Source: Thermoanaerobaculia bacterium (lineage in GTDB: Bacteria; Acidobacteriota; Thermoanaerobaculia; Multivoradales; JAIOJS01). Taken from it: a DNA stretch of 42,572 nucleotides. The notes under the pieces are model-generated. The model was not told the DNA's origin, did no database searches, and worked only from the letters and a program-made list of their open reading frames with translations. Location of the stretch: the NCBI GenBank assembly GCA_035546355.1, contig DATKEH010000117.1, forward strand, positions 1-42,572, given 5' to 3'. The translations under genes and the position numbers were made by a program. Below are positions 13,946-32,632 of the stretch, piece after piece (positions within the stretch are counted from its first letter, which is position 1; every line of letters starts with the position of its first letter).

Positions 13946-13952
13946 GCCGGCG

Positions 13953-18224: not shown

Positions 18225-19370
18225 CTACGGCGATTCTAACCCCGCGGTCCCTCCAGGGGAGCGGAGCAGGCCGCGCAGCAGCCGCGCCACGCCGCCGGCG
18301 CCCAATCGGCGCAGCGGCAGCTGCCCGGCGTGCAGCCCGAGCAGCCGGCAGAACAGTCCCGCTTCGCCCGCCATCGCCGAGACGAATCGGCGGCGCAGCC
18401 AGGGCCGGGCCTCGGCCACCAGCAGCAGCCGGGTGAGGGTCGCGGGCAGGCGTACCAGCCGGCGGTGCTGGGCGGGCCAGCTGGCGAGCGTCCCGCCGGC
18501 GAGCGCCGCCGCCAGCGCTTCCCCCTGGCGCACGGCGAGCCCCACGCCCTCGCCGGTCAGGGCGTCGACGTAGCCGGCGGCGTCGCCGACCAGCGCCAGT
18601 CGCCCGCACGCCACCCCCCGCGGCCGGCACAGGAACGGCCCCGCTCCCTGGTCGCGCGAGGTCACCGGCGAGGCGGCGAGCCGCTCCGCCAGGGCGGGAA
18701 AGGCGGCGAGCAGCTCGTCGAAGGACGCCTTGCGCCCGCTCCACAGCATCGCCACTCCCACCTCGTCGTCGCCCACCGGCGTGACGTAGGCCTCGACGCC
18801 GGGCCCCCACGACACCTCCACCGCCGCGCTCCAGGGGGCCAGGCGGTAGTGCCGGCGGACGCCGAAGCGGCGGGGGCCGCGCGCCCGCCCCTCGAGCGCG
18901 GCCCAGCGCCGTACCCGCGAGCGCAGCCCGTCCGCCCCCACCAGCCAGCGGCCGCGGACCGCCCCCCGGCGGGTGCGAAACGCCCCCTCCTCGAGCCCTG
19001 CCACGGTCTCCCCCCAGCGCAGCACGACGCCGGCCTCGGCGGCGCGCTCGACCAGCGCCGCGTGCAGCACCGGTCGCCGCACCGCCCGTCCCGGCGCTCC
19101 CGGAAAGCGGCCCTCGGCGACCCGCTCGCCGTCGACGTAGCGGATGCCGGGGAAGGGCCGCCCCAGGCGGGACGCGGTCACGCCCAGCCGCTCCAGTGCG
19201 GCGATGCCATCGGGCATGATCCCCTCGCCGCACGGCTTGTCGATCGGCGGCGCCGCGCGGTCGAGCACCAGCACCGACAGCCCGCGCCGGCGGGCGGCGA
19301 TGGCGGTGGCGAGCCCGGCCGGGCCGCCGCCGGCGATCACCACGTCGGCTTCGTCAGGCACCGGATCCAC
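18225..19370 (-). CDS. FAD-dependent oxidoreductase/hydroxylase (geranylgeranyl-reductase-like; SrsC/Ftp-type position)
   Basis: 381 aa with the dinucleotide fold VVIAGGGPAGLATAIAARRRG and a GD motif LVGDAAGYVDALTGEG. The start overlaps the acyl-AMP ligase 3' end by 17 nt. Confidence 0.8.
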   Translation of the reverse strand: MDPVPDEADVVIAGGGPAGLATAIAARRRGLSVLVLDRAAPPIDKPCGEGIMPDGIAALERLGVTASRLGRPFPGIRYVDGERVAEGRFPGAPGRAVRRPVLHAALVERAAEAGVVLRWGETVAGLEEGAFRTRRGAVRGRWLVGADGLRSRVRRWAALEGRARGPRRFGVRRHYRLAPWSAAVEVSWGPGVEAYVTPVGDDEVGVAMLWSGRKASFDELLAAFPALAERLAASPVTSRDQGAGPFLCRPRGVACGRLALVGDAAGYVDALTGEGVGLAVRQGEALAAALAGGTLASWPAQHRRLVRLPATLTRLLLVAEARPWLRRRFVSAMAGEAGLFCRLLGLHAGQLPLRRLGAGGVARLLRGLLRSPGGTAGLESP

Positions 19371-21057
19371 CGCCGCCGCCGTCGACGCCCAGCTCGGCGA
19401 GCACGGTGAGATCGCCGGCCAGCAGCGCGCGCAGCGCAGCGCCGCGCCGCAGCTTTCCCGACGAGGTGCGCGGCAGCGCCCGCGCCGCCACCACCGCCAC
19501 CCGCCGGGGCGCCACCCCCGCCGCCGCCAGGGCGGCCTCGCGAGCCGCCGCGGCGAGCTCGGGCAGCCGCGCCGGCGCCACCTCCTCGTCCGCCTCGAGC
19601 AGCACCACCAGCGCCTCCCCGAGCCCGTCCCCGGAGCTCCAGCCCATCGCCGCCACGCCGCCGCGACGCACGCCGGGCACCGCCGCCACCGGCTCCTCGA
19701 CCTCTGCCGGCGCCAGGTTGCGGCCGCGCACGACGATCACCTCCCTGGCGCGCCCCACCAGGTAGAGATCGCCCCGATAGAGGAAGCCGAGGTCGCCGGT
19801 GTCGAGCCAGCCGTCGCGCAGCACGCGGGCGGTCTCGGCGGGGCGATCGAGGTACCCCTGCATCAGCGACGGCCCGCGGGCCCACACCCTGCCGACCCGG
19901 CCCTCCGGCAACCGCCCCGCCGCCCGGTCGCGTACCTCGACGGCGAAGCCGGGGACCGGCCGGCCGAGGGCCACCAGCTCCCGTCCCGCCGGCGCCTCGA
20001 CCGCCTCGCCGCGGCTCGCCAGCGGATCGGCGGCGAAGCGGCGAGCGGTGAAGGGTGCTTCCAGCTCGCCGAAGGTCACCGCCAGCCCGGCCTCGGCCAG
20101 ACCGTACACCGGGGTCAGCGCCTCGCGGCGGAAGCCCCAGCGCGCGAAGCGGCGGGCGAAGGCGCCCAGCACGGCCGCCGACACCGGCTCGGCGCCGTCG
20201 AGGGCCACGCGCCAGCACGACAGGTCGACACCGGCGAGCTCGTCGTCCCGCACCTGCTCGACGCACAGGCGGTAGGCGAAGTCGGGCGCCGCCGACACCG
20301 TGGCGCGGGCGCGGGAGATGGCGCGCAGCCACAGCGCCGGCCGGGCGATGAAACCCTCCGGCGGCAGCAGGGTGAGCGTCGCCGGCCGCTCGAGGGCGGT
20401 CAGCACCCCCCCGACGAGCCCCATGTCGTGGTAGAGCGGCAGCCAGGACACCCCGGTGTGGGCGGCGCCGGCCCCATCGGGCCAGAAGCCGTTGAGGATG
20501 CGCGCCTGAGCCATCAGCGCGGCGTGGGTGAGGGCGACGCCGCGGGGCTCGCCGGTGGTGCCGGAGGTCAGCTGCACCAGGGCCAGATCGGCCCCGTCGA
20601 CGGCCACCGGCAGCGCGGCGGCGGCCGGCAGCCCGTCGAGGGTGCGGGCGCCGCCAGGCGTCGTGGCGGCGGCGGCGGCCTCGCTCACCGGGCGCCGCAG
20701 CCGCCGTTCGGTGAGCGCCAGGGCCGCTGCGACGCCCCGCAGCCGGCTCGCCGCGGCGCCGCGCCAGGCGGCCAGCGCGCCCAGGCGCAGCGGCGGGGGC
20801 AGCGGCACGGGCACCGCGCCGGCGCGAAGGGCGCCGAAGAAGGCGGCGAAGAACTCCTCTCCGGTGGGGTACACCAGGCCCACCCGCTCCCCGGGTCGCA
20901 CCCCGAGCGCCTGCAGCCCCCCCGCCACCCGCTCCGCCGCCGCCGCCACCTCGGCCCAGGTGAGCATCCGCTCCCGTTCCCGCCGGTCGACCAGCCGCAG
21001 GCCGGCCGCCGGCACCGCTGCCGCTCGCCGCAGCCAGTCCACCAGGCTCTCAGCCAT
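19354..21057 (-). CDS. Fatty acyl-AMP ligase (FAAL-type adenylating enzyme)
   Basis: 567 aa of the ANL superfamily with LTSGTTGEPRGV, GDLGF..GRAREVIVVRGRN and TSSGKLRR. It is adjacent to a stand-alone ACP, and its start overlaps the ACP 3' end by 8 nt. Confidence 0.85.
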   Translation of the reverse strand: MAESLVDWLRRAAAVPAAGLRLVDRRERERMLTWAEVAAAAERVAGGLQALGVRPGERVGLVYPTGEEFFAAFFGALRAGAVPVPLPPPLRLGALAAWRGAAASRLRGVAAALALTERRLRRPVSEAAAAATTPGGARTLDGLPAAAALPVAVDGADLALVQLTSGTTGEPRGVALTHAALMAQARILNGFWPDGAGAAHTGVSWLPLYHDMGLVGGVLTALERPATLTLLPPEGFIARPALWLRAISRARATVSAAPDFAYRLCVEQVRDDELAGVDLSCWRVALDGAEPVSAAVLGAFARRFARWGFRREALTPVYGLAEAGLAVTFGELEAPFTARRFAADPLASRGEAVEAPAGRELVALGRPVPGFAVEVRDRAAGRLPEGRVGRVWARGPSLMQGYLDRPAETARVLRDGWLDTGDLGFLYRGDLYLVGRAREVIVVRGRNLAPAEVEEPVAAVPGVRRGGVAAMGWSSGDGLGEALVVLLEADEEVAPARLPELAAAAREAALAAAGVAPRRVAVVAARALPRTSSGKLRRGAALRALLAGDLTVLAELGVDGGGGGSGA

Positions 21058-21337
21058 CGCCCGCGCCTCCCCGCGCTCGCAGCTTCTCGGCCAGCACCCG
21101 CTGCAGGTCGCCGACGGTGCGGATCGCCGCCTCGTCGTCGGCGTCGAGGCACACCTCGAGCCGGTCCTCGACCTCGACCGCCAGGGTGAGCAGGCCCAGC
21201 GAGTCGAGGCCCAGGTCCTCGACCAGCCGCTGCTCGGGCCGCAGCGGCTCGCCGTGCCCGAGCTGGCGCGCCACCGCCGCGAGGGCGGCGCGGACCGCCG
21301 CCGGCACGGCGTCGCCTGGCGGCGCCGCGGCGCTCAT
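21050..21337 (-). CDS. Stand-alone acyl carrier protein
   Basis: 95 aa with the phosphopantetheine attachment motif LGLDSLGLLTLAVEVE. Confidence 0.85.
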   Translation of the reverse strand: MSAAAPPGDAVPAAVRAALAAVARQLGHGEPLRPEQRLVEDLGLDSLGLLTLAVEVEDRLEVCLDADDEAAIRTVGDLQRVLAEKLRARGGAGDG

Positions 21338-21338
21338 C

Positions 21339-21908
21339 TCAGCGCCGCCCCTCCCGCTCGGGCCGCGCGGCGGGCGGGCCGGCGCGCGGCGGGCGCAGCC
21401 CCAGGGCTCGCTCCTCGACGCGCACCCGCACCGCCAGCACCGCGGCGTTGGCCAGCGAGGCGACCAGCGCGGTGACCCAGGCGGTGTGCACCAGCGGCAG
21501 CGCCGCCAACTCCAGCACCACCGCCAGGTAGTTGGGGTGGCGCAGCAGCCGGTAGGGTCCCGCCGCCACCAGCGGCAGCGCTCCCGGCGTCACCAGCACG
21601 CGGGTGGTCCAGCGATCGCCGAGGGTGGCCACCACCCACCAGCGAAGGGCCATGGTGGCGGCCACCAGCGCCAGCATCGGCCAGCCGAGCCGCGGCAGGA
21701 AGGGGCGATCCCAGGCCAGCACCTCGGCCGGCGCGGCCAGCAGCAGGGCCGTGTGCAGGGCGACCATCCACGGGTAGTGGCCCGCTCCCACCTCGACCGC
21801 GCCGCGGGCCCGCAGCCGCCGCTCGTGACGGCGCGACACCGCCAGCTCGGCCAGCCGCTCGCAGCCGACGGCGGCGATCAGGATCAGGAACAGGGCCTCG
21901 CTCCGCAT
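21339..21908 (-). CDS. ICMT/PEMT-like membrane methyltransferase (SrsB-type position)
   Basis: 189-aa multi-TM protein with GPYRLLRHPNYLAVVLE, typical of the isoprenylcysteine carboxyl methyltransferase family. Its stop lies 1 nt before the ACP start. Confidence 0.8.
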   Translation of the reverse strand: MRSEALFLILIAAVGCERLAELAVSRRHERRLRARGAVEVGAGHYPWMVALHTALLLAAPAEVLAWDRPFLPRLGWPMLALVAATMALRWWVVATLGDRWTTRVLVTPGALPLVAAGPYRLLRHPNYLAVVLELAALPLVHTAWVTALVASLANAAVLAVRVRVEERALGLRPPRAGPPAARPEREGRR

Positions 21909-21929
21909 GCCCCCGCCTCCGCGCCCGCC

Positions 21930-22979
21930 TCACCACTCGAGCAGCACCAGCTCGGAACAGAACCCGGGGCCCATCGCCAGCAGCAAGCCGGGGCTGCCGG
22001 CCGGCGGCCGATGCCGCACCAGGGTCTCGCGCAGCACCAGCAACACCGAGGTCGAAGACAGGTTGCCCACCTCGCGCAGGCTGCGCCAGGTGACCGCCAG
22101 GGCCTCGGCAGGCAGCTCGAGCACCTCCTGCATCGCCTCCAGCACCTTCGGCCCTCCCGGATGGGCCACCCAGGAGCGGATGTCCGGCCGCGCCAGCCCA
22201 TGCTCGGCGAGGAAGCCGTCGACGTCCCGCCGCAGGTGGCGCCGCACCATCTCCGGCACCTCCGCCGACAGCACCACCGAAAACCCGCTCTGCGAGACGT
22301 CCCACCCCATCACCCGCTCGGTGTCGGGGTAGAACACCGACCGCGACGCCACCACCCGCGGGCCGTCGGCCTGCCGCTCCGCGCCCACCATCACCACCGC
22401 CGCCGCGCCGTCGCCGAAGAGGCCCGAGGCGATCAGGTTGGGGATCGACAGGTCCGCCTCCTGCAGGGTCAGCGAGCACAGCTCCACCGAGACCAGCACC
22501 GCCACTTCCCCGGGGTGGCCGCGGAGGTAGTCGGCGAGCCGCGCCACCCCCGCCGCCCCGGCCAGGCAGCCGAGCCCGAAGATCGGCACCCGTTTGACCC
22601 GCGGCGGCAGGCGCAGGCGGTTCATCAGCCGCGCGTCGAGCGACGGCGTGGCGACGCCGGTGACGGTGGCGGTGTAGAGGGCGTCGATCTCGTCGCCGGC
22701 GATGCCGGCGGCGTCGAGCGCCGAACGCACCGCAGCCTCTCCCACCTCCTGGGCGACGCGGATCCAGGCGTCGTTGGCCTCCCCCCAGCTCGCCAGCCGG
22801 GGGTACTCCTCCAGCGGCAGCGCCAGGTGGCGCCCGCCGACCAGCACGTTGCGATGCAGCCGCTCCAGTCTCTCGAGGTTGAAGTGCCGCCGCCCCCACA
22901 CCTCGCGGAAGGCGGCGATCAGCTGCTCCTGCGGGTAGTAGTGGGGGGGGAAGGCCTCTCCCACGGCGGCGATCCGCAT
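21930..22979 (-). CDS. Type III polyketide synthase (chalcone/stilbene synthase family)
   Basis: 349 aa counted from ATG 22979 (MRIAAVGEAFPPHYY). The Cys-His-Asn triad contexts are FGLGCLAGAAG, WVAHPGGPKVL and EVGNLSSTSVL, and the C-terminal end reads AMGPGFCSE. The track ORF extension to 23249 is rejected. Confidence 0.92.
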   Translation of the reverse strand: MRIAAVGEAFPPHYYPQEQLIAAFREVWGRRHFNLERLERLHRNVLVGGRHLALPLEEYPRLASWGEANDAWIRVAQEVGEAAVRSALDAAGIAGDEIDALYTATVTGVATPSLDARLMNRLRLPPRVKRVPIFGLGCLAGAAGVARLADYLRGHPGEVAVLVSVELCSLTLQEADLSIPNLIASGLFGDGAAAVVMVGAERQADGPRVVASRSVFYPDTERVMGWDVSQSGFSVVLSAEVPEMVRRHLRRDVDGFLAEHGLARPDIRSWVAHPGGPKVLEAMQEVLELPAEALAVTWRSLREVGNLSSTSVLLVLRETLVRHRPPAGSPGLLLAMGPGFCSELVLLEW

Positions 22980-23401
22980 CAGCGCTCCAACTTCAGGCTG
23001 CCGGCGAGGAAGGCCAGCAGCAGCCCGCCGGCGAGGTAGAGCGGCAGCCACCCCAGGACCTGCGCCAGCCAGGGCTGGCCGGGGAGCCAGGTGAGACGCG
23101 CCAGGGTCAGCAGCAGCAGCGGGCCGCGGAAGACCCAGGCGACGCCGCCGGCGAGCAGGCCGTCCACCCAGCGCGAGCCGCGACCCTCGATGAGCAGGAA
23201 CAGCGCCGTCAACCCCACCGCCTCGAGGCCCCACTCCGCCAGCCGCCACGGCCCGACGCCGCGGTCCCGCTCGAGACCGAGACGGGCCAGCGCCAGATCC
23301 TCTCCCGCCCAGCCGGCGACCTCCAGGGCGAAGGCTCCCCCGGCGAGCAGCAGCAACAGCAAGGGCAGCGCCAGGAGCAGGAACCGCAACACCCGCGGCA
23401 T
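22979..23401 (-). CDS. Small polytopic membrane protein, first gene of the PKS operon (uncharacterised)
   Basis: 140 aa counted from ATG 23401 (MPRVLRFLLLALPLLLLLLAGGAF), with about four hydrophobic spans. Its stop overlaps the PKS start (ATGA at 22979-22982). The upstream track extension to 23536 is P/R/S-rich with poorer codon usage. GTG 23392 is an alternative start. Confidence 0.55.
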   Translation of the reverse strand: MPRVLRFLLLALPLLLLLLAGGAFALEVAGWAGEDLALARLGLERDRGVGPWRLAEWGLEAVGLTALFLLIEGRGSRWVDGLLAGGVAWVFRGPLLLLTLARLTWLPGQPWLAQVLGWLPLYLAGGLLLAFLAGSLKLER

Positions 23402-23428
23402 CTTAGCGTAGGGGTCGGGCGAGGAGCT

Positions 23429-23437
23429 TGGTAGAGT
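23429..23437 (+). promoter_or_regulatory. Extended -10-like element TGGTAGAGT upstream of the arsM operon
   Basis: TG-n-TAGAGT, nearly identical to the ppiD element (both read TAGAGTCG). It would give a GC-rich leader of about 120 nt. Confidence 0.3.
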
Positions 23438-23565
23438 CGGGGGCACGGGCGGCGCCAGCGACGGCGGCGATCCGATCGGCGGCCGCCCCCGTATCTCTGT
23501 CGCAGGCGCCCGCCCCCGGTGCCGGCGCGCCGCCACCCATCGCCGGGATGGAGGAGAGCCAACCG

Positions 23566-24726
23566 ATGACCCCGCCGTTCGACGTCGAGAGCGAAGTGCG
23601 CCGCCGCTACCGCCAGGGCGCCAGCACGACCGCCGCGGAGCTGTGCTGCCCGGTCGACTACGATCCGCGCTACCTGGCGGCGATCCCGCCGGAGGTGTTG
23701 CAGCGGGACTACGGCTGCGGCGACCCCTCGCGCCACCTGCGGTCGGGCGAGACGGTGCTCGACCTCGGCTGCGGCACCGGCAAGATCTGCTTCATCGCCG
23801 CCCAGGTGGTGGGGCCGCAGGGGCGGGTGGTCGGCATCGACATGACCCCGGAGATGCTGGCCGTCGGCCGCGCCGCGGCGCCGGTGGTGGCGCAGCGGCT
23901 GGGCTACGCCAACGTCGATTTCCGACGCGGCCGCATCCAGGACCTCGCCCTCGACCTCGAGCGGCTGGAGGCGGCGCTCGCCGCCAGCCCGGTGCGCGAC
24001 GCCGAGGGGTGGCTGGCCGCCGAGTCGCTGGCCGCCGAGCTGCGGCGCAGCGAGCCGCTGGTGGCGGACGGGAGCATCGACGTGGTGGTCTCCAACTGCG
24101 TGCTCAACCTGGTGCGCCCGGAGCTCAAGGGGCAGCTGTTCGCCGAGATCCACCGCGTGCTGCGCCGCGGCGGCCGCGCGGTGATCGCCGACATCGTCAG
24201 CGACGAGCCGGTGCCGCCGCACCTGCAGGCGGACCCCGAGCTGTGGAGCGGCTGCGTCTCCGGCGCGCTGACCGAGGAGGGGTTCCTCGCCGCCTTCGAG
24301 GCCGCCGGCTTCTACGGCATCCGCCTGCTGGAGCGGCAGCGGGAGCCCTGGCGGACGGTGGAGGGGATCGAGCTCCGCTCGGTGACGGTGGAGGCCTTCC
24401 GCGGCAAGGAGGGCCCGTGCCGCGAGCGCCGCCAGGCGGTGGTCTACCTGGGGCCGTTCAAGGAGGTGCTGGACGACGACGGCCACCGCTTGCCGCGGGG
24501 GGTGCCGGCGGCCGTCTGCGACAAGACCTTCCACATCCTCACCCGCGAGCCCTACCGGCAGCACTTCGCCGCCGTCGAGCCGCGGGTGCCGGTGCCGCCG
24601 GAGGAGGAGGCGCCCTTCGACTGTGCGCGCACCCTGCGCCGGCAACCCCACGAGACCAAGGGGGAGCGGTACGCCCACACCAGCGACGGAGCCGCCTCCT
24701 GTTGCGGCCCGGAGGGGTGCTGCTGA
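23566..24726 (+). CDS. arsM: As(III) S-adenosylmethionine methyltransferase family protein (ArsM-type)
   Basis: The following motifs occur in order: ELCCPVDY, RDYGCGDP, SAM motif VLDLGCGTGKICF, VVVSNCVLNLV, DPELWSGCVSGAL, a C-terminal domain and an SCCGPEGCC tail. This matches the four conserved Cys positions and the tail of CmArsM as I recall it. ATG 23566 is chosen because GGAGGAG (23550-23556) lies 9 nt upstream. ATG 23548 is possible, and the track start at 23428 is rejected. Confidence 0.75.
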   Translation: MTPPFDVESEVRRRYRQGASTTAAELCCPVDYDPRYLAAIPPEVLQRDYGCGDPSRHLRSGETVLDLGCGTGKICFIAAQVVGPQGRVVGIDMTPEMLAVGRAAAPVVAQRLGYANVDFRRGRIQDLALDLERLEAALAASPVRDAEGWLAAESLAAELRRSEPLVADGSIDVVVSNCVLNLVRPELKGQLFAEIHRVLRRGGRAVIADIVSDEPVPPHLQADPELWSGCVSGALTEEGFLAAFEAAGFYGIRLLERQREPWRTVEGIELRSVTVEAFRGKEGPCRERRQAVVYLGPFKEVLDDDGHRLPRGVPAAVCDKTFHILTREPYRQHFAAVEPRVPVPPEEEAPFDCARTLRRQPHETKGERYAHTSDGAASCCGPEGCC

Positions 24727-25616
24727 TGGCGGAGCCCGCCGCGGCGCGGCCGGCGGCCGGCGTGCCGAGCGCGCCGCTGCGCAGCCTCGATACGCTCTGG
24801 TTCCAGGTGGCGGGGACGCTGTGCAACCTCGCCTGCACCCACTGCTTCGTCTCCTGCTCGCCCACCAACCACACGCACGAGATGATGACGTTGGAGCAGG
24901 TGCTCGCCTACCTCGACGAGGGGGCGGCGCTGGGGGTCAAGGAGTGCTACTTCACCGGCGGCGAGCCGTTCCTCAACCCGCAGATGGAGGCGATCCTGGC
25001 GGCGGCGCTGCGCTACGGCCCGGCCACGGTGCTCACCAACGGGATTCTCCTCGACCCCTCCCGCTGCCGGCGCCTGGCGCAGCTGGCGGCAGACAGCGAC
25101 TACTCGCTCGACCTGCGGGTGTCGCTCGACGGCTTCACCGCCGCGGGGCACGACGCCATCCGCGGCCCCGGCACCTTCGCGCGCGCCCTCGCCGGCATCC
25201 GCAACCTGGCGGCGGCGGGGCTCGAGCCGGTGATCACCGCCACCGAGGTCGACGACGCCAACGCTGCGCCCGCCGGCAAGCGGCGCTTCTTCGCCCTGCT
25301 CGCCGAGGCCGGCGTCCGGCGGCCGCGGCTCAAGGTGTTGCCGGTGTTCCGGCTGGGCGCCGAGGCCGAGCGCAGCGGCGCCTACGCCAGCTGGCAGCGG
25401 CTGCAGGAGGGGGGCCACGCCGACGGCGATTGGGGGCACCTGCAGTGCAGCAGCTGCCGCATGGCCACCGCCTGCGGAGTGTGGGTGTGCCCGATCCTGG
25501 TCAACGAGCCGGCGGCGAAGATGGGGGAGCGGCTGGCCGACACCCTGCGTCCGTTCCCCCTGGCCCACGCCGCCTGCTGGACCTGCCACGCCTACGGAGT
25601 GAGCTGCCGGACGTGA
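24726..25616 (+). CDS. Radical SAM enzyme with SPASM/twitch-like Cys-rich C-terminus
   Basis: 296 aa with the cluster motif CNLACTHC (CxxxCxxC), GGEPFLNP, and VSLDG..HD..RGPGTF. The C-terminus carries CSSCRMATACGVWVC (Cx2Cx5Cx4C) and CWTCHAYGVSC. ATG 24726 overlaps the arsM stop (TGATG). Confidence 0.85.
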   Translation: MAEPAAARPAAGVPSAPLRSLDTLWFQVAGTLCNLACTHCFVSCSPTNHTHEMMTLEQVLAYLDEGAALGVKECYFTGGEPFLNPQMEAILAAALRYGPATVLTNGILLDPSRCRRLAQLAADSDYSLDLRVSLDGFTAAGHDAIRGPGTFARALAGIRNLAAAGLEPVITATEVDDANAAPAGKRRFFALLAEAGVRRPRLKVLPVFRLGAEAERSGAYASWQRLQEGGHADGDWGHLQCSSCRMATACGVWVCPILVNEPAAKMGERLADTLRPFPLAHAACWTCHAYGVSCRT

Positions 25617-26617
25617 CCCCGGCCCGCCCGCCGCAGGGCGGTGACGGCGACCGCCGCCGCGACCGCCTGACCGCCCACCGCGGCCTCGCCACCTGGGGGG
25701 AGCGGCTGGTGCCGCTGGACGACTTCCGCCGCGCCGTCGCCGCCGCCGGCGGGGAGCTGCCCGCCGCCGAGCGGGCGCGGGCGGCGGCCCGCTTCCTGGC
25801 CCGCCCGGCGGACCCGACGCCGGTCGAGGGACCCTTCGCCCGGGTCGCCCTGTTCGGCGGCGTCTACAACAACCATCTGGCGTTGACCGCCCTGCTGGAG
25901 GAGGCGGCGGGCGAGCGCGTCGAGGCCCTCTACTGCCTCGGCGACCTGGGCGGTTTCGGCCCCAGCCCCGAGAAGGTACCGCCGCTGCTCGCCGCCGGCG
26001 GCGTCGCCTGCGTCGCCGGCAACTACGAGCAGTCGCTGGCGCGCGGCGCCGAAGACTGCAACTGCGGCTACACCGACCCGCGGGACAACCACTTCGCGCG
26101 GCTGTCCTACCGCTACACGGCCGAGCGCACCCCCGCCGCCGTGCGGCGGTGGATGGGGACGCTGTCGCCGCGGCGGCGGGTGCGGGTGGGCGAGCGGGAG
26201 CTGCTGCTGGTGCACGGCTCGCCGCGGCAGGTCAACGAGTTCCTCTTCGCCTCCACCACGCCGACCGCCTGGCTCGAGCTGCTGCTCGACCAGGAGGGCG
26301 CCGACGCGCTGGCCTGCACCCACACCGGCCTGCACTGGCACCGCCGCCTGCCCTCGGGGCGCGAGGTGATCAACGTCGGGGTGATCGGCCGCCCCGCCAA
26401 CGACGGCGACCCGCGGGTCTGGTGGACCCTGGTGTCGGCACGCGGCGACCAGCTCGAGGTGGCGCTGCGGCCGCTCGCCTACGACCACCGGGGGCTCGCC
26501 GCCGAGATGCGCCGCGAAGGGCTGCCCGAGGAGTTCGTCGCCACCATCCTCGACGGCTGGTGGACCACCTGTCTGGAGGTGCTGCCCAGCAAGGAGCGGG
26601 CGCAGGGGAGGTATTGA
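25613..26617 (+). CDS. Metallophosphoesterase-family protein (PF12850-like, atypical motif I, about 80-aa N-terminal extension)
   Basis: 334 aa with CLGDLGGFGP, VAGNYEQ..EDCNCGY, LLVHGSPRQVNEFLF and ACTHTG, resembling the GNYD/DCGCxY metallophosphoesterase clade. GTG 25613 overlaps the radical SAM stop (GTGA). The frame is GC3-rich from the first codon. Confidence 0.7.
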   Translation: MTPARPPQGGDGDRRRDRLTAHRGLATWGERLVPLDDFRRAVAAAGGELPAAERARAAARFLARPADPTPVEGPFARVALFGGVYNNHLALTALLEEAAGERVEALYCLGDLGGFGPSPEKVPPLLAAGGVACVAGNYEQSLARGAEDCNCGYTDPRDNHFARLSYRYTAERTPAAVRRWMGTLSPRRRVRVGERELLLVHGSPRQVNEFLFASTTPTAWLELLLDQEGADALACTHTGLHWHRRLPSGREVINVGVIGRPANDGDPRVWWTLVSARGDQLEVALRPLAYDHRGLAAEMRREGLPEEFVATILDGWWTTCLEVLPSKERAQGRY

Positions 26618-27906
26618 TGTCCGAGCCCCACCTCGCCATCCTGGGGGCGGGCCCGATCGGGCTCGAGGCGGCGCTCGCCGCCGTCGACGCCGGCCTGCCC
26701 TTCACCCTCTACGAGGCCGCGCCGCACCCGGCCGCCCACGTCGCCGACTGGGGGCACGTGCGGCTGTTCACGCCATGGGCGATGAGCGTCTCGCCGCGCC
26801 TGCGCCGGCACCTCGGCGGCGCCGGCATCCCGGTCCCCGACGATGCGGCGCGCTGCCCCACCGGCCGCCAGCTGGTCGAGCAGGTCCTCGCCCCCGCCGC
26901 GGCGCTGCCCGCCGTCGCGCCCCACCTGCGCCTGGGCTGCCGGGTGCTGGCGGTGGGGCGGCAGGGGCTGCTCAAGCACCAGGAGATCGCCTCCGCCGAG
27001 CGCGCCCGCCGCCCCTTCCGGCTGCTGCTGGAGGACCCCGGCGGGCAGCGGGTGGAGCTGGCGGCGCGCGTCCTCGACTGCACCGGAAGCTGGGGCCACC
27101 CCAACGCCCTGGGCGACGGCGGCATCCCGGCGCCGGGGGAGGAGGCGCTGGGCGAGCGCATCGTGCGCCGCCTGCCCGACCTGGCCGCCGAGGAGCTCCA
27201 CTGGGCCGGCCGCACCATCCTCCTCGCCGGCGCCGGCCACTCCGCCCAGACCGCCGCCCGCGACCTGGCCGCCCTCGCCCGCCGCCACCCGGCCACCGAG
27301 GTGATGTGGGCGCTGCGCCAGGAGCCGCCGGCGCTGGCCCCGATGGCCGACGATCCGCTGGCCGAGCGGGCGGCGCTCACCGCCGCCGCCGCCCGCCTCG
27401 CCGCCGGCGAGGGGCCGCTGGCGGTGCGCGCGGGGGTGGCGGTGGAGTCGCTGGCGGCGGCGGGCGCCCGCGTCGCCGTCACCCTGCGCCACCGCTCCGG
27501 CGCCACCGACACCGTCACCGTCGACCGCATCCTGGCGCTCACCGGCAGCGTCGGCGACTCCGCGCTCTACCGCCAGCTGCAGGTGCACGAGTGCTACGCC
27601 ACCTGCGGGCCGATGAAGCTCGCCGCGGCGCTGCTCGGCGCCGCCGGCGGCGGCGACTGCCTGCAGCAGACCTCCCACGGCGTCGACGCCCTGGTCAACC
27701 CCGAGCCGGGTTTCTTCCTGCTGGGAGCCAAGTCCTACGGCCGCAACGCGACCTTCCTGCTGCGGGTGGGCTGGCAGCAGGTGGACGAGGTGTTCGGGCT
27801 GCTCGACCGCCAGAGGGGCGGCGACCCTACAACCCTTGCTCCACCCGCCGCGCCAGCTCCTCGCCGATCGGCAGGCAGGAGGTGGCGGCCGGCGACGGGG
27901 CGTTGA
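26617..27906 (+). CDS. FAD/NAD(P)-binding oxidoreductase (two dinucleotide-binding folds)
   Basis: 429 aa with a first fold LAILGAGPIGLEAALAA and a second fold ILLAGAGHSAQTAARDLA. ATG 26617 overlaps the previous stop (TGATG), and the SD GGGGAGG lies 5 nt upstream. The last 26 codons run antisense through the lhgO 3' end. Confidence 0.75.
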   Translation: MSEPHLAILGAGPIGLEAALAAVDAGLPFTLYEAAPHPAAHVADWGHVRLFTPWAMSVSPRLRRHLGGAGIPVPDDAARCPTGRQLVEQVLAPAAALPAVAPHLRLGCRVLAVGRQGLLKHQEIASAERARRPFRLLLEDPGGQRVELAARVLDCTGSWGHPNALGDGGIPAPGEEALGERIVRRLPDLAAEELHWAGRTILLAGAGHSAQTAARDLAALARRHPATEVMWALRQEPPALAPMADDPLAERAALTAAAARLAAGEGPLAVRAGVAVESLAAAGARVAVTLRHRSGATDTVTVDRILALTGSVGDSALYRQLQVHECYATCGPMKLAAALLGAAGGGDCLQQTSHGVDALVNPEPGFFLLGAKSYGRNATFLLRVGWQQVDEVFGLLDRQRGGDPTTLAPPAAPAPRRSAGRRWRPATGR

Positions 27907-29020
27907 GCACGTGCAGCGACCGCTCGCCGGCGGCGATCAGGAAGTCGTCGAGCAGCGTCCCGTCGCGCCCCAGGGCCTGGGCGCGCACCCCGGACGGCGC
28001 CGGCAGCAGGTCCCGGCGCGACAGCTCCGGCACCAGGCGCCGCAGGCTGCGCAGGAACAGCCGCGGCGACAGCGAGCGCGCCATCTCGCCGGCGGCGAGA
28101 CGCGGGTACCGCGCCGCCAGCCGCCACAGCCCCGGCCACGCCAGGGTCTCGGCGAGCTCCGCCGGGTCGACGAGCCCCCAGGAGTACCCCTCGCGCGCCA
28201 GCGCCAGCACCGCGTTGGGCCCGGCGCCGACCTCGCCGTCGACGCCGCGGTGCAGGTGCACCCCGAGGAAGGGGAAGCGCGGGTCGGGGACCGGGTAGAG
28301 CAGGTGGCGCACCAGCTGGCGCGCCGCCGGCCGCAGCCGGTAGTACTCGCCGCGGAAGGGCACGATCCGCACCGCCGGCTCGACCCCGGCCAGCCGCGCC
28401 ACGCGGTCGGCGTACAGGCCGGCGCAGTTGAGCAGCAGCTCGGCCTCCACCGGCCCGGCGGTGGTGGCGAGGCGCAGGCCGCCGCGGCGGTCGCCGACCC
28501 GCTCGACGGTGGCGCCGGTGCGTACCTCCCCGCCCGCCTCCCGCACCTCTTCGGCCAGGGCGTTGGCCACGGCGGCGAAGTCGACGATCCCCGCCTCCGG
28601 CACCAGCAGCGCCGCCGCACCCCGCGCGTGCGGCTCTCGCGCCGCCAGCTGGTCGCGCGCGAGGGGCTCGCTGGCGACCCCGTTGGCGGCCCCGCGCGCC
28701 GCCAGCTCGTCGAGGCGGGCGGCCTCCCCGGCGTCGCCGGCGAGGATCACCTTGCCGCAGACCTCGCAGGGGAGGCCGCGGCGCGCGCACAGCTCGCGCA
28801 GCGCGCGATTGCCGTCGCGCGCGAAGCGGGCCTTGAGACTGCCGGGCCGGTAGTAGATGCCGGAGTGCAGCACGCCACTGTTGCGGCCGCTCTGATGCCG
28901 CGCCGGCGCCGCCTCCTTCTCCAGCACCACCACCCGCGCTGCCGGCAGCCGCTGCTGCACCGCCCGCGCCGCGGCGAGCCCCACCAGCCCCCCCCCGACC
29001 ACCGCCACCGTGTAGGTCAT
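27827..29020 (-). CDS. lhgO: L-2-hydroxyglutarate oxidase/dehydrogenase (FAD-dependent)
   Basis: 397 aa with VAVVGGGLVGLAAA and HQSGRNSGVLHSGIYYRPGSLKA, typical of LhgO/YgaF. Confidence 0.8.
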   Translation of the reverse strand: MTYTVAVVGGGLVGLAAARAVQQRLPAARVVVLEKEAAPARHQSGRNSGVLHSGIYYRPGSLKARFARDGNRALRELCARRGLPCEVCGKVILAGDAGEAARLDELAARGAANGVASEPLARDQLAAREPHARGAAALLVPEAGIVDFAAVANALAEEVREAGGEVRTGATVERVGDRRGGLRLATTAGPVEAELLLNCAGLYADRVARLAGVEPAVRIVPFRGEYYRLRPAARQLVRHLLYPVPDPRFPFLGVHLHRGVDGEVGAGPNAVLALAREGYSWGLVDPAELAETLAWPGLWRLAARYPRLAAGEMARSLSPRLFLRSLRRLVPELSRRDLLPAPSGVRAQALGRDGTLLDDFLIAAGERSLHVLNAPSPAATSCLPIGEELARRVEQGL

Positions 29021-29029
29021 GCGGCGGTC

Positions 29030-29035
29030 ATCCTA
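29030..29035 (-). promoter_or_regulatory. -10-like hexamer TAGGAT, 9 nt upstream of the lhgO ATG
   Basis: The minus strand reads GCGGATAGGAT-GACCGCCGC-ATG with no SD. Confidence 0.25.
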
Positions 29036-29057
29036 TCCGCGCCGCCCCGCTCGCGGC

Positions 29058-29066
29058 TGGTATATT
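29058..29066 (+). promoter_or_regulatory. Extended -10-like element TGGTATATT, 10 nt upstream of the hemH ATG
   Basis: The sequence is TGGTATATT-CCGCGCCGCC-ATG with no SD. Confidence 0.3.
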
Positions 29067-29076
29067 CCGCGCCGCC

Positions 29077-30192
29077 ATGAAGTACCGCGGCGAGGAGACC
29101 TTCGGCCACGCGCAGGAGCCGGCGATCGGCGTGCTGGTGGCCAACCTCGGCACCCCCGACGCGCCCACCGCGCCGGCGCTGCGCCGCTATCTCAAGGAGT
29201 TCCTGTGGGACCCGCGGGTGATCGAGCTGCCGCGCTGGAAGTGGTGGCTGGTGCTCCACCTCTTCGTCCTCACCCGGCGCCCGCGGCAGTCGGCGAAGCT
29301 CTACCGCAAGATATGGACCGCCGAGGGAGGCCCGCTGCTGCTCGGCACCGAGCGCCTGGCGACCCTGCTCGAGCAGTGGCTGCGCCCACGCCTCGACAGC
29401 CCGCTGCACGTGGCGGTGGGGATGCGCTACGGCCGCCCCTCCCTGGGTTCCGCCCTCGACGCGCTCACCGCGCGGGGCTGTCGTCACATCCTGCTGCTGC
29501 CGCTCTACCCGCAGTACTCCGCCACCTCCACCGCCTCGACCTTCGACGTGGTGGCCGGCGAGCTCACCCGGCGCCGCTGGGTGCCGGAGCTGCGCACCGT
29601 CAACGGCTACCACGACGACCCCGCCTACGTCGCCGCGCTCGCCGCCTCGATCCGCGAGGTGTGGGACCGCGACGGCGAGCCGGAGCGGCTGCTGCTCTCC
29701 TTCCACGGCATCCCGCTGTCCTACTTCCTCGCCGGCGACCCCTACTACTGCCAGTGCCAGAAGACCGGCCGCCTGGTGGCCGAGGCGCTGGGCCTGGCGG
29801 AGGGCCGCTACCAGGTGACCTTCCAGTCGCTGTTCGGCAAGGAGGTCTGGCTGCAGCCCTACACCGACGCCACCGTGCGGGCGCTGGGCGCGCAGGGGGT
29901 GGGCAGCCTCGACGTCGCCTGCCCGGGCTTCGCCGTCGACTGCCTCGAGACCCTGGAGGAGATCGACGGCCTGAACCGCGACATCTTCGCCGCTTCCGGG
30001 GGCGGCCGCTTCCGCTATCTGCCCTGCCTCAACGAGCGCCCCGACCACGTGGCGGCGCTGGGGGAGCTGGCCCTGCGGAACCTGCAGGGGTGGTCGGTGG
30101 CGAAGGCGGCGACGGCGGCGCGCTCGGGCGAGCGGCGGCGGCGAGCCGAAGCGCAGGCGGCGCGCTACCCGCTGCCGCTGACGCCGCCCTGA
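29077..30192 (+). CDS. hemH: Ferrochelatase
   Basis: 371 aa with GVLVANLGTPDAP, LKEFLWDPRVIELPR, LPLYPQYSATST and FHGIP. Confidence 0.93.
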   Translation: MKYRGEETFGHAQEPAIGVLVANLGTPDAPTAPALRRYLKEFLWDPRVIELPRWKWWLVLHLFVLTRRPRQSAKLYRKIWTAEGGPLLLGTERLATLLEQWLRPRLDSPLHVAVGMRYGRPSLGSALDALTARGCRHILLLPLYPQYSATSTASTFDVVAGELTRRRWVPELRTVNGYHDDPAYVAALAASIREVWDRDGEPERLLLSFHGIPLSYFLAGDPYYCQCQKTGRLVAEALGLAEGRYQVTFQSLFGKEVWLQPYTDATVRALGAQGVGSLDVACPGFAVDCLETLEEIDGLNRDIFAASGGGRFRYLPCLNERPDHVAALGELALRNLQGWSVAKAATAARSGERRRRAEAQAARYPLPLTPP

Positions 30193-32482: not shown

Positions 32483-32632
32483 CGCGCGATCACCTTCCCG
32501 GACCCGTGGCGGCAGGCGCTCGCGCGGCTGGGTCGCGGTACCTTCCTGCCGGTCGGCGCCACCGGCTGCTCACCAAACTCTGGGAGGCGGCGGCGGCGCT
32601 CGGGCCCCGACGGCGAGGAGCTCGGGCGTTGA
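32471..32632 (+). CDS. Candidate leaderless small ORF (53 codons), hypothetical
   Basis: The translation is MVAERAITFPDPWRQALARLGRGTFLPVGATGCSPNSGRRRRRSGPDGEELGR. By hand count only 7 of 54 third positions are A/T, a better GC3 than the overlapping track frame that starts at 32506. The ATG lies 7 nt after a TGCTAACGT -10-like element. The TGA stop overlaps the TTG start of the next gene (TTGA). I recognise no homology. Confidence 0.3.
   Translation: MVAERAITFPDPWRQALARLGRGTFLPVGATGCSPNSGRRRRRSGPDGEELGR

Follow-up and report, generated by a model that had tools for sequence, protein, structure and literature searches.

Organization of the locus

The stretch of DNA analysed here (the window, 42,572 nucleotides of a Thermoanaerobaculia contig, GenBank accession number DATKEH010000117.1) includes four consecutive genes on the plus strand, preceded by an intergenic region.

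23402..23565, no strand: intergenic region between a divergent small membrane-protein gene (minus strand) and gene 1, presumed operon promoter region
23566..24726, plus strand: gene 1, ArsM-type As(III) SAM methyltransferase (MT), 386 aa
24726..25616, plus strand: gene 2, radical SAM enzyme (rSAM) of an unnamed, distantly ArsS-like family, 296 aa
25613..26617, plus strand: gene 3, metallophosphoesterase-fold (MPE-like) protein with a GTG start and a remodelled active site, 334 aa
26617..27906, plus strand: gene 4, flavoprotein with two dinucleotide-binding domains, TrxR/FNR/N-hydroxylase-like, 429 aa

The start/stop overlaps that an earlier sequence-only reading had described between these genes were all confirmed in the sequence. 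The junctions of genes 1 and 2 (TGA at 24724–24726, ATG at 24726–24728) and of genes 3 and 4 (TGA at 26615–26617, ATG at 26617–26619) are both TGATG, and genes 2 and 3 are joined by GTGA, in which the GTG at 25613–25615 overlaps the TGA at 25614–25616. The gene 1 start at ATG 23566 agrees with homologues of 385 aa; a second possible start is the ATG at 23548. For gene 3, the GTG start is backed by an N-terminal extension (HRG.ATWG) conserved in homologues of about 335 aa. A convergent DAO-family gene (27827–29020) overlaps the end of gene 4 by 80 bp, and the last 30 or so residues of gene 4 (about 27810–27906) are unconserved in its homologues, the conserved part stopping near 27810.

Searches of 22000–29500 for sigma-70-like promoters, terminators and Rfam elements found none, so a regulatory role for 23402–23565 is presumed only. 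ArsR, Acr3, ArsB, ArsC and ArsH were not found in a Pfam scan of all called genes of the window except a partial ORF (1–557) and the ACP gene, which bears out the earlier view that this is not the arrangement of a resistance operon.

The methyltransferase

All of the motifs on which gene 1 had been recognized (ELCCPVDY, YGCG, VLDLGCGTG, SNCVLNL, DPELWSGCVSGAL and the SCCGPEGCC tail) are present in its translation. The best NCBIfam model was that of the arsinothricin ArsM (NF040538; 315.8 bits, cut-off 500), with a near-full-length alignment, and PRK11873 gave 188.9 bits (cut-off 263). Gene 1 matched the solved structure of CmArsM (PDB 4fr0, E = 4e-35), with its YGCG, SNC and SGC motifs aligned to Cys72, Cys174 and Cys224, respectively, and the N-terminal CC pair beside Cys44. 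The corresponding residues (C27/C28, C51, C178 and C230) and the C-terminal CC..CC tail are invariant in 26 members of the gene 1 subfamily. The protein thus falls inside the ArsM clade with all arsenite-binding cysteines retained across the subfamily, and its identification as an ArsM-type enzyme stands.

The radical SAM partner of this subfamily was examined in 80 metagenome loci carrying relatives of gene 1. A true ArsS (TIGR04167, 435–436 bits) adjoins the MT gene (55–73% identity to gene 1) in 41 loci and an rSAM of the gene 2 type does so in three, and the two never co-occur. An MPE gene was found in none of the 41 ArsS loci versus all three gene 2-type loci, and a flavoprotein gene in none of the 41 versus two of the three.

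The radical SAM enzyme

Gene 2 carries the cluster motif CNLACTHC (C33/C37/C40) and matches PF04055 Radical_SAM with 79 bits. Its best NCBIfam model is the Rv1681 family (117.7 bits, cut-off 380). As had been proposed, it is neither ArsS nor ArsL: it scores 59.7 bits against TIGR04167 (cut-off 300) and lacks the RCCLKC tail. The ArsL model (NF040542) was not among its best 25 NCBIfam models. A profile alignment with ArsS (hhalign) nevertheless spanned residues 25–255 with a probability of 97.7% and E = 1.9e-12, at about 27% identity. No NCBIfam model at E<=10 covers the C-terminal 101 aa, and no Pfam model recognizes this part. Within the family, C241, C255, C284, C287 and C294 are invariant, and the tail reads ACWTCHxYGVSC[KR]T. 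With 7553 homologues at E<=1e-10, gene 2 belongs to a large unnamed family that is distantly homologous to ArsS beyond the core and has a similar C-terminal cysteine tail.

The metallophosphoesterase-fold protein and the flavoprotein

Gene 3 just exceeds the threshold of PF12850 Metallophos_2 (27.3 bits, cut-off 27) and matches PDB 3rqz with E = 8.5e-12 (phmmer). Its AF2 model (pLDDT 78) resembles SapH (3qfm) with a target-normalised TM of 0.80 (Foldseek). The fold proposed for a phosphoesterase is therefore present. The phosphate removal proposed with it is doubtful, because the canonical motifs I and III are replaced throughout the family (GG[VI]Y instead of D-x-H, and GNYE instead of GNH[DE]) and an invariant DCxCGY has been gained, within DCxCGY[TA]DPRDN. 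A second motif, GWWTTCLE, is also invariant.

For gene 4, the assignment as an oxidoreductase with two dinucleotide folds was upheld. It has two Rossmann motifs and matches Pyr_redox_2 and NAD_binding_8 (Pfam), its homologues are about 400 aa long with Pyr_redox_2/3, and its AF2 model (pLDDT 78) matches TrxR-like FNRs, TrxR, YpdA/Bdr and N-hydroxylases with E~1e-14.

Recurrence of the genes in other genomes

Among 47 fully flanked loci of other genomes, 13 have the four genes in exactly the order seen here (MT-rSAM-MPE-flavoprotein), so the arrangement is not due to chance, and the genes are co-stranded in 80 of 81 other loci, consistent with the single unit proposed. Not every member is fixed, however. 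The conserved core consists of the rSAM gene, the MPE-like gene, which lies directly 3′ of it in 74 of 76 loci, and the flavoprotein gene, found in 40 of the 47. ArsM, which the sequence-only reading had taken as a member of the unit, is facultative (24/47). In other loci a block of MT and Pst genes sits at varying positions inside the cluster.

Fusions involving the rSAM, verified by blastp, occur in several independent assemblies. These are an ArsM-rSAM protein from Planctomycetota/Brocadiales (P0379), three flavoprotein-rSAM proteins (P0386, P0516, P0368), an MPE-rSAM protein (P0501) and a TIGR04282 (DUF2064)-rSAM protein (P0502) whose TIGR04282 domain scores 163.6 bits (cut-off 134). The overlaps, the synteny despite shuffling of gene order and the four kinds of domain fusion together support functional coupling of genes 1–4.

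Accessory genes of the related loci encode TIGR04282-like proteins, thioredoxin, a Pst-like ABC transporter, PiT, a MIP channel (aquaporin) and an OprO/P porin, as well as TIGR04169-like proteins that score 113–115 bits (cut-off 120). At least one of these was present in 33 of 47 loci. TIGR04282 and TIGR04169 owe their names to co-occurrence with ArsS (guilt by association). The 80 genome loci sampled belong mostly to one class, Thermoanaerobaculia, and the synteny may for this reason partly represent inheritance rather than selection. Sequence conservation of about 70% across Thermoanaerobaculia would also be compatible with a housekeeping role.

A putative organoarsenical pathway and its alternatives

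On balance, and with moderate confidence, we read genes 1–4 as one operon for a hitherto undescribed variation on the ArsM/ArsS organoarsenical pathway: a distantly related rSAM takes the place of ArsS, and arsenic is the presumed substrate. As a widespread module that seemingly replaces ArsS, the putative organoarsenical operon is a good candidate for new carbon-arsenic chemistry. A search of the literature yielded no description of an MT, rSAM, MPE-like protein and flavoprotein in combination, so the claim of an undescribed pairing survives. The system is nevertheless related to known ones: its MT subfamily partners true ArsS elsewhere, gene 2 is distantly related to ArsS, and the operon looks more like a variant arsenosugar-type cassette than like an entirely new route. 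The rSAM is tied to arsenic chemistry by its fusion with ArsM and by the exchange of ArsS and gene 2 beside a single MT subfamily. Several observations count against an organoarsenical role. About half of the loci have no ArsM within 10 kb, rSAM, MPE and flavoprotein genes occur alone in 14 of 47, all NCBIfam matches of genes 1 and 2 are under the curated cut-offs, and the neighbours in the window itself include no DUF2064, importer or ars gene.

In the proposed pathway, arsenite would bind the gene 2 cysteine tail (C284/C287/C294), as with the RCCLKC tail of ArsL. The enzyme would then cleave SAM at a [4Fe-4S] cluster held by C33/C37/C40 and couple the resulting carbon radical, most likely 5′-deoxyadenosyl as in ArsS, to arsenic to form a C-As bond. 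Gene 1 could methylate the arsenic before or after this step by means of its four conserved cysteines, and gene 4 may pass NAD(P)H electrons to the rSAM cluster or to enzyme disulfides. A classical phosphodiesterase activity is improbable for gene 3, which more likely binds or presents an oxyanion, metalloid or adenosyl substrate via its invariant CxC site, or alternatively may take part in arsenate reduction. Relatives of the operon also bring in import systems of their own (Pst-like, PiT, aquaporin), together with homologues of two arsenosugar-associated proteins, TIGR04282 and TIGR04169.

Of the alternatives, the least unlikely is that the core acts not on arsenic but on a phosphorus oxyanion (phosphite, phosphonate or phosphate ester) or some other substrate, with the ArsM-like protein joining in only occasionally, for tailoring or protection. 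Five kinds of phosphate-family uptake system have been recruited (Pst-like, PhnCDE-like, PiT, OprO/P porin and an SBP_bac_6 ABC importer), and as these are phosphate, phosphonate or phosphite types, phosphorus chemistry fits them equally well. Further pointers in this direction are the MPE fold, a CofC-like DUF2064 and a CDP-alcohol phosphatidyltransferase that adjoins a DUF2064-rSAM fusion. In addition, a Roseomonas cassette is without ArsM, and every arsenic-associated gene is absent from 14 of the 47 loci. However, arsenate also enters cells via phosphate transporters, and the aquaporin of relatives suits As(OH)3. The degenerate catalytic motifs of the gene 3 family and the links of the rSAM to arsenic described above also argue against this explanation. 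Phosphorous acid was not accepted as a substrate by ArsL, a result on that enzyme alone (bioRxiv 10.1101/2024.02.01.577332).

Slightly less probable again is that gene 2 generates a different radical, transferring 3-amino-3-carboxypropyl as ArsL does, or another group, to give an arsinothricin-like or new organoarsenical rather than an adenosyl/arsenosugar-type product. The best model of gene 1 is that of the arsinothricin-pathway ArsM (315.8 bits), ArsL demonstrates that an enzyme with CxxxCxxC and a C-terminal cysteine tail can form a non-adenosyl radical, and the MPE-like and flavoprotein partners, absent from ArsS loci, hint at different chemistry. Against this, gene 2 differs from ArsL in tail, size and motif position, NF040542 is not among its best 25 models, it is detectably homologous to ArsS, and the MT subfamily of gene 1 pairs with ArsS and not with ArsL.

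It is improbable that the operon works with the divergent type III polyketide synthase cluster, either by tailoring its phenolic lipids or by making an arsenic-containing lipid jointly with it. Of 47 loci, 29 have the T3PKS gene next to the rSAM module, 27 the ICMT-type methyltransferase gene and 23 the FAAL gene, and these include MAGs labelled Polyangiaceae and Deltaproteobacteria. However, the cluster, which we take to resemble the srsABC type, lies on the opposite strand, is self-contained (T3PKS, ICMT-type MT, FAD_binding_3 hydroxylase, FAAL and ACP) and is absent from Longimicrobiales loci, Mor1, deep-branch loci and all fusion contexts.

Least probable of all is that gene 1 simply serves detoxification, as an ordinary ArsM beside unrelated neighbours, with gene 2, for example, a heme or cofactor maturase, as JGI names of homologues (‘AdoMet-dependent heme synthase’, ‘MoaA’), HemH (ferrochelatase) 3′ of the module in 21 of 47 loci and generic similarity to AhbD, NirJ and MoaA models might suggest, because gene 2 scores only 63.6 bits for AhbD (cut-off 500) and 53.5 for MoaA (cut-off 284), HemH adjacency is limited to one lineage and interrupted in the window by an opposite-strand gene, and the overlaps, synteny and fusions speak for coupling. 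As a widespread module that seemingly replaces ArsS, the putative organoarsenical operon is a good candidate for new carbon-arsenic chemistry.

Comparison with known systems

In the arsenosugar pathway of Synechocystis sp. PCC 6803, ArsS (TIGR04167, ‘radical SAM/Cys-rich (seleno)protein’) acts together with ArsM (PMC8552651), and the associated genes are TIGR04282, TIGR04283 and TIGR04169. Here too an ArsM-type MT is coupled to an rSAM with an N-terminal CxxxCxxC and a C-terminal CxxC...SC tail, the MT is of the type found beside true ArsS (41/80 loci), and relatives of the operon have TIGR04282-like and TIGR04169-like genes and PiT or MIP transporters. Unlike ArsS (0/41 loci with either), gene 2 is accompanied by an MPE-fold protein and, in most loci, by a flavoprotein, and in half of the loci its module is without ArsM.

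The arsinothricin pathway (arsQML of Burkholderia gladioli) shares the two-enzyme logic of C-As bond formation by an rSAM (ArsL, NF040542 RCCLKC-tail radical SAM) and methylation by ArsM, and the top NCBIfam model of gene 1 comes from this pathway. ArsL binds As(III) with its cysteine tail (bioRxiv 10.1101/2024.02.01.577332). Gene 2 likewise bears three cysteines at its extreme C-terminus, within CWTCHxYGVSC[KR]T rather than RCCLKC, but has 296 aa with CxxxCxxC at 33–40, compared with 428 aa and 194–201 in ArsL. The window is without the ArsQ permease, arsR and surrounding ars operon of arsQML, and the MPE-like and flavoprotein genes are additional relative to ArsM/ArsL.

The Rv1681 family (NF049973), the members of which are to our knowledge uncharacterized, is the best-scoring named rSAM model for gene 2 and all of its fused relatives. 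Gene 2 matches only the core of this model (profile positions 81–249 of 326), at 117.7 bits against a cut-off of 380. Gene 3 shares its fold, including the C-terminal helical part, with SapH/Spr1479, an Ap4A hydrolase/phosphodiesterase, and with the structural-genomics metallophosphoesterases 3rqz, 1nnw and 2gju. Unlike these, it is without the Asp and His of motif I and the His of motif III, has the invariant DCxCGY and GWWTTCLE and a conserved N-terminal extension of about 75 residues, and is genomically tied to a radical SAM enzyme.

Organisation of the operon and identity of gene 1

The sequence-only reading had described four plus-strand genes with overlapping start and stop codons, and all of the overlaps were read in the sequence (TGA/ATG at 24724–24728, GTG/TGA at 25613–25616 and TGA/ATG at 26615–26619, with the final stop at 27906). 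The genes are:

23566–24726, plus strand, gene 1, ArsM-type methyltransferase, 386 aa
24726–25616, plus strand, gene 2, radical SAM enzyme, 296 aa
25613–26617, plus strand, gene 3, metallophosphoesterase (MPE)-fold protein, 334 aa
26617–27906, plus strand, gene 4, flavoprotein
27827–27906, 80 bp, overlap of the gene 4 3′ end with a convergent DAO-family gene (27827–29020, L-2-hydroxyglutarate-oxidase-like)

The chosen starts are backed by the lengths of the homologues (385 aa for the methyltransferase, approximately 335 aa for the MPE-like protein and approximately 400 aa for the flavoprotein), and an N-terminal HRG.ATWG extension is conserved in the MPE-like homologues. The final 30 or so codons of gene 4 show no conservation in its homologues. 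Scanning of bases 22800–28300 detected no promoters or terminators, and no Rfam elements were detected between 22000 and 29500. Every motif that had been quoted for gene 1 is present in its translation, and the statement that ArsR, Acr3, ArsB, ArsC and ArsH are not nearby was borne out by Pfam searches that covered almost all the remaining window genes.

Gene 1 has a class I fold with the SAM-binding motif VLDLGCGTG (PF13847, 105.4 bits, cut-off 27). Its best NCBIfam match was NF040538, the ArsM of the arsinothricin pathway, which scored 315.8 bits over nearly the full length (cut-off 500), and scores for other ArsM models were 188.9 bits for PRK11873 (cut-off 263) and 118.7 bits for NF038099 (cut-off 400), so that none of the curated NCBIfam ArsM cut-offs was reached. 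Matches to the solved ArsM structures 4fr0 and 4kw7 had E-values of about 4e-35, and in this alignment the YGCG, SNC and SGC of gene 1 fall on Cys72, Cys174 and Cys224 of CmArsM, with the N-terminal Cys pair three residues off Cys44. The ArsM-type cysteines are all invariant in the 26 members of the gene 1 subfamily found in related loci, as are C285, C318, C353 and a C-terminal CC..CC tail. Gene 1 should methylate arsenic; indirect support for action on trivalent arsenicals comes from the 41 of 80 loci in which members of its subfamily adjoin bona fide ArsS.

The radical SAM enzyme, the MPE-fold protein and the flavoprotein

None of the curated NCBIfam models names genes 2, 3 or 4. Gene 2, recorded by NCBI as a 'radical SAM protein', contains the cluster motif CNLACTHC, with C33, C37 and C40 invariant (PF04055, 79 bits, cut-off 29.5). 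Judged by its model scores it belongs to no named family: the best named NCBIfam model, the Rv1681 family, gave 117.7 bits against a cut-off of 380. Assignment as an AhbD/NirJ/MoaA-type enzyme was rejected on NCBIfam scores far below the cut-offs, and the heme or cofactor roles implied by automatic names are not supported by those scores. The tail ACWTCHxYGVSC[KR]T is invariant in the gene 2 family, as are C241 and C255 upstream of it, and the last 101 residues had no match in NCBIfam at E≤10, the SPASM, ArsL-tail and ArsS models included. Homologues are numerous and closely conserved, with 7553 proteins at E≤1e-10 (the top 120 at approximately 70–75% identity) and 114 family clusters at the 50% identity level at E≤1e-30, and relatives are encoded in at least 590 species-representative genomes.

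The match of gene 3 to PF12850 was borderline (27.3 bits, cut-off 27), while PDB entry 3rqz was matched at E = 8.5e-12. In Foldseek comparisons, the AF2 model matched SapH (3qfm) with E = 3e-15 and a target-normalised TM of 0.80, with 3rqz, 1nnw and 2gju among the other matches. Across the gene 3 family, motif I is an invariant G-G-[VI]-Y in place of D-x-H, motif III is an invariant GNYE in place of GNH[DE], and motif V (canonically G-H-x-H) has shrunk to THTG; of the canonical motifs only GD and HGSPR are kept. New invariant elements, DCxCGY[TA]DPRDN and GWWTTCLE, are present throughout, and a relative encoded on a Roseomonas plasmid (38% identity) shows the same pattern (GGPYSN, GNCE and DCGCGF). 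Because motifs I, III and V are altered family-wide, it is doubtful that gene 3 is a conventional phosphodiesterase. From the invariant CxC site and its phosphate-binding fold, gene 3 may bind or reduce the substrate (arsenate or arsenite) or handle an adenosyl moiety; this role is the weakest point of our reading.

Gene 4 has two Rossmann GxGxxG motifs (GAGPIG and GAGHSA), and its homologues carry Pyr_redox_2/3. A PDB sequence search returned only a marginal match to the N-terminal Rossmann motif, and nothing in NCBIfam scored above about 20 bits. Foldseek with the AF2 model of gene 4 gave E-values of about 1e-14 to ferredoxin-NADP reductase (5ygq/3ab1), thioredoxin reductase and YpdA (7a76), with TM scores that are low (0.3–0.46) due to domain orientation. 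The closest structural neighbours are TrxR-like ferredoxin-NADP reductases, thioredoxin reductases, YpdA/Bdr and N-hydroxylases, which gives a fold class and no specific subfamily. The redox-active CxxC of the TrxR type was sought in gene 4 and is absent. C80 is invariant, as is C326 in a HECYATC segment, in places where the model is partly of low confidence. Gene 4 probably supplies electrons, given its structural closeness to reductases that feed ferredoxin- or flavodoxin-dependent enzymes and its natural fusion to a radical SAM domain.

Synteny of gene 2 relatives

Eighty loci from other genomes were surveyed by tblastn with gene 2 as the anchor, 47 of them with full flanks of at least 9 kb on each side. 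The counts rest on tblastn rather than gene calls, since the gene caller misses some genes, and at this G+C content ORFs often have long, spurious 5′ extensions. The loci are mostly from Thermoanaerobaculia, and also from Longimicrobiales, Holophagales, one Elusimicrobia MAG and the cultured Acidobacteria bacterium Mor1.

Of the 76 loci with room for it, 74 have an MPE-like gene immediately 3′ of the radical SAM gene. Among the 47 full-flank loci, the flavoprotein gene was found in 40, an ArsM-type methyltransferase gene in 24, a DUF2064 gene in 23 and a Pst-like ABC transporter in 10, nine of which also have the methyltransferase. The exact gene order of the window was found in 13 and the trio of radical SAM, MPE-like and flavoprotein genes alone in 14, while at least one arsenic-associated or oxyanion-uptake gene is present in 33. 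The linkage of ArsM to the other genes was upheld, but the core is the radical SAM enzyme, a pseudo-phosphoesterase and the flavoprotein, with ArsM a frequent addition (24/47). The methyltransferase and Pst block has two locations, one 5′ to the radical SAM gene and one between the MPE-like and flavoprotein genes (loci L015, L017, L034 and L045). It is on the same strand throughout, the pattern expected of a functionally coupled cluster.

In Mor1, a divergent operon (DUF2064, flavoprotein, methyltransferase, MIP channel, PHO4/PiT, DUF1877) faces the radical SAM and MPE genes. The DUF2064 proteins of related loci had a sole match, to TIGR04282 ('arsenosugar biosynthesis glycosyltransferase'), at 55–98 bits against a cut-off of 134. 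Additional genes in deep-branch loci encode thioredoxin, a MacAB/HlyD exporter, an OprO/P porin with an ABC importer, and a CMD/AhpD-like protein scoring 113–115 bits on TIGR04169 ('arsenosugar biosynthesis-associated peroxidase-like', cut-off 120). Genes of the TIGR04282 and TIGR04169 families were sought beside the radical SAM gene in the window and are absent.

In some related loci that lack ArsM, the Pst-like transporter adjoining the radical SAM gene is replaced by an SBP_bac_6-type ABC importer (L009, bases 5240–9464; L032; and L073, bases 13079–16854, where an OprO/P-type porin accompanies it). A gene-2-like cassette is annotated on plasmid p546-1 of Roseomonas haemaphysalidis, a cultured alphaproteobacterium (L088, accession number NZ_CP061178.1, bases 53274–70125), in the order TIGR04282, DUF547, radical SAM (460 aa), gene-2-like radical SAM, PhnD/PhnE/ATPase and MPE, with ArsM absent. 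On the opposite strand are genes for DUF547, two FAD oxidoreductases and a VTT (DedA-like) protein. This species is a tractable organism for probing the radical SAM/MPE pair. Genes 5′ of L044-type loci (HPPD, homogentisate-dioxygenase-like, hydrolase and cNMP/FHA) were annotated and judged unrelated, and the annotation at the site of a Marinobacter plasmid match (H2) was uninformative.

Neighbourhood of the module in the window

The genes surrounding the module are:

14833–16398, minus strand, second, unrelated radical SAM gene (Radical_SAM_N2 + Radical_SAM, 521 aa), about 8 kb upstream
18225–19370, minus strand, FAD_binding_3 hydroxylase, phenolic-lipid type cluster
19354–21057, minus strand, fatty acyl-AMP ligase (FAAL), phenolic-lipid type cluster
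21050–21337, minus strand, ACP, phenolic-lipid type cluster
21339–21908, minus strand, ICMT-family methyltransferase, phenolic-lipid type cluster
21930–22979, minus strand, type III PKS, phenolic-lipid type cluster
22979–23401, minus strand, small hydrophobic protein (approximately 140 aa), between the PKS gene and gene 1
29077–30192, plus strand, ferrochelatase, separated from the module by an inserted opposite-strand gene
32506–33441, plus strand, DUF547 gene, 4.6 kb downstream of the operon
36926–41812, minus strand, large NAD-specific glutamate dehydrogenase (Bac_GDH family, 1628 aa), ordinary and unrelated to the module

The phenolic-lipid type cluster (18225–22979) is complete, is divergent from the operon and resembles srsABC plus FAAL/ACP. 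Neighbours of the module in the 47 related loci include the type III PKS in 29, ICMT in 27 and FAAL in 23. The small hydrophobic protein has no Pfam or NCBIfam match, and about 30 related loci have a homologue of it at this site. The second, unrelated radical SAM gene is conserved at a similar distance in 19 related loci. In 21 of the 47 related loci, ferrochelatase is encoded 3′ of the module and on its strand, in many cases within approximately 20 bp of the flavoprotein gene, and it is still downstream in three where the flavoprotein is missing (L032, L040 and L065); this adjacency is confined to one lineage. DUF547 is in or beside gene-2-like cassettes on p546-1 (two copies), in loci L085/L086 (two copies) and in the Elusimicrobia locus L078, which is the only one of the 80 close loci with DUF547 within 10 kb. 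The DUF547 gene of the window may be a remnant link or a coincidence.

Domain fusions

Fusions were found among the long proteins of an exhaustive representative search and were checked by blastp against the window proteins and by NCBIfam. Protein P0379 (618 aa) joins a radical SAM domain (42% identity to gene 2) to an ArsM-type methyltransferase (39% identity to gene 1). Flavoprotein and radical SAM domains are fused in P0386, P0516 and P0368, DUF2064 and radical SAM domains in P0502 and P0517, where the TIGR04282 domain is above cut-off (163.6 versus 134), and MPE-like and radical SAM domains in P0501, which was found on one contig only. Most fusion types recur in more than one assembly. The hosts were Planctomycetota, Candidatus Brocadiales and Ca. 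Wunengus for the methyltransferase fusion, and Planctomycetaceae and Zixibacteria for the flavoprotein fusion; the DUF2064 fusion was found on several contigs. On the ArsS model the fused radical SAM domains all scored below the cut-off (44–64 bits). An apparent thioredoxin-radical SAM fusion, P0393, was an apparent frameshift and was left out of the counts.

Taken together, the fusions and the synteny show, at the computational level, a functional unit centred on the radical SAM enzyme that includes all four genes of the window and, in other loci, DUF2064. In one Candidatus Wunengus sp. contig (L083, GenBank accession number DBJWYM010000040.1, bases 3260–5137), the radical SAM-ArsM fusion stands without an adjoining MPE-like or flavoprotein gene, its neighbours being aroA and ribD, and the two-domain enzyme may therefore be sufficient in anammox-related Planctomycetota.

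Reciprocal survey anchored on gene 1

Eighty metagenome loci with the closest relatives of gene 1 (55–73% identity) were also surveyed. Bona fide ArsS (435–436 bits on TIGR04167) was present in 41, usually in the order methyltransferase, PiT or MIP, ArsS, with a true TIGR04282 gene in some. A gene 2-type radical SAM gene was found in three, accompanied by the MPE-like gene in all three and by the flavoprotein gene in two. None of the 41 ArsS loci contained MPE-like or flavoprotein genes, and ArsS was found in none of the 80 gene 2-anchored loci. In these loci the two radical SAM types never co-occur, so one ArsM subfamily is served by two alternative radical SAM solutions.

Interpretation of the module

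The sequence-only reading is supported in part: the four-gene unit is real, ArsM-linked, widely syntenic and novel. No description of the module or gene combination was found in the literature searched, and searches on arsenolipid gene clusters, Thermoanaerobaculia arsenite methyltransferases and TIGR04282, TIGR04169 or DUF2064 yielded nothing relevant. Membership, conservation, linkage and fusion were observed; the mechanistic steps we infer from them. The best-supported reading is that the module represents an undescribed variant of the ArsM/ArsS-type organoarsenical pathway.

A bolder version, in which genes 2 and 3 form a new two-component machine for carbon-arsenic bond formation, gene 3 is a new type of arsenic handler (an arsenate reductase or arsenite carrier with a CxC site on a phosphatase fold), the flavoprotein is a built-in reductase and the product is an organoarsenical outside the arsenosugar and arsinothricin classes, is tentative and on balance unlikely. 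The product would possibly be lipid-bound or exported, since MacAB-type exporters, a CDP-alcohol phosphatidyltransferase and the phenolic-lipid cluster are found beside relatives.

That the core acts on phosphorus or another non-arsenic substrate we consider distinctly unlikely. The recruited transporters belong to classes for phosphate, phosphonate or phosphite (Pst-like, PiT, OprO/P and, on p546-1, PhnCDE-like), ArsM is absent near half of the modules, a CDP-alcohol phosphatidyltransferase abuts one DUF2064-radical SAM fusion, and the Roseomonas cassette combines PhnD/E/ATPase with a lack of ArsM, all of which count against the arsenic reading and are consistent with such a substrate.

Under the preferred organoarsenical reading, gene 2 should form a carbon-arsenic bond from SAM, by analogy with the 5′-deoxyadenosyl transfer of ArsS and the Cys-tail binding of As(III) in ArsL; use of an ArsL-like or other radical by gene 2 is improbable. 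A link to the adjoining srs-like type III PKS cluster is very improbable, as that cluster is complete in itself, with its own hydroxylase and methyltransferase, and is absent from the modules of other lineages.

Significance

To our knowledge, the sources of many environmental organoarsenicals are still unassigned. The module is common: it is present in at least 590 genomes at the species level, and metagenome proteins of its families run into the thousands. Its hosts are mostly soil and sediment Acidobacteriota but include Gemmatimonadota, Planctomycetota (anammox relatives), Zixibacteria, Elusimicrobia and one alphaproteobacterial plasmid. Were organoarsenicals its product, arsenic speciation in soils and sediments would have a major contributor that has gone unrecognised, and carbon-arsenic chemistry would have a third enzyme class. 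If the substrate is not arsenic, a very widespread radical SAM/pseudo-phosphoesterase pair would still gain its first functional context. Cultured Mor1 and Roseomonas haemaphysalidis, the natural fusion proteins and the invariant cysteine tail provide experimental handles.

Comparison with ArsS and ArsL

The radical SAM enzymes known for carbon-arsenic bond formation are ArsS, which transfers 5′-deoxyadenosyl to arsenic, and ArsL (PMC8552651; bioRxiv 10.1101/2024.02.01.577332). ArsL is 428 aa long with CxxxCxxC at 194–201 (PMC8552651), and its C-terminal RCCLKC motif binds As(III) (bioRxiv 10.1101/2024.02.01.577332). Gene 2 was rejected as an ArsL: it is 296 aa long with the cluster motif at 33–40, its tail is CWTCHxYGVSC[KR]T and RCCLKC is absent. 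NF040542 (ArsL) was not among the best 25 of its 56 NCBIfam matches. It was also rejected as an ArsS, with 59.7 bits on TIGR04167, over residues 20–165 only, against the required 300; true ArsS from loci L109 and L111 scored 435–436 bits.

The module is a relative of the ArsS cassette rather than a separate route. It shares the methyltransferase subfamily, and profile–profile comparison (hhalign) matched the gene 2 family to ArsS with 97.7% probability (E = 1.9e-12) over gene 2 residues 25–255. The match reaches past the radical SAM core, with two cysteine columns in common. The tails resemble one another, HCFGCTAGAGSSC in ArsS and ACWTCHxYGVSC in gene 2, but that of gene 2 lies outside the hhalign region and is recognised by no model. 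At the extreme C-terminus, ArsS has HCFGCTAGAGSSCGG and gene 2 has ACWTCHxYGVSC[KR]T, which are similar in appearance.
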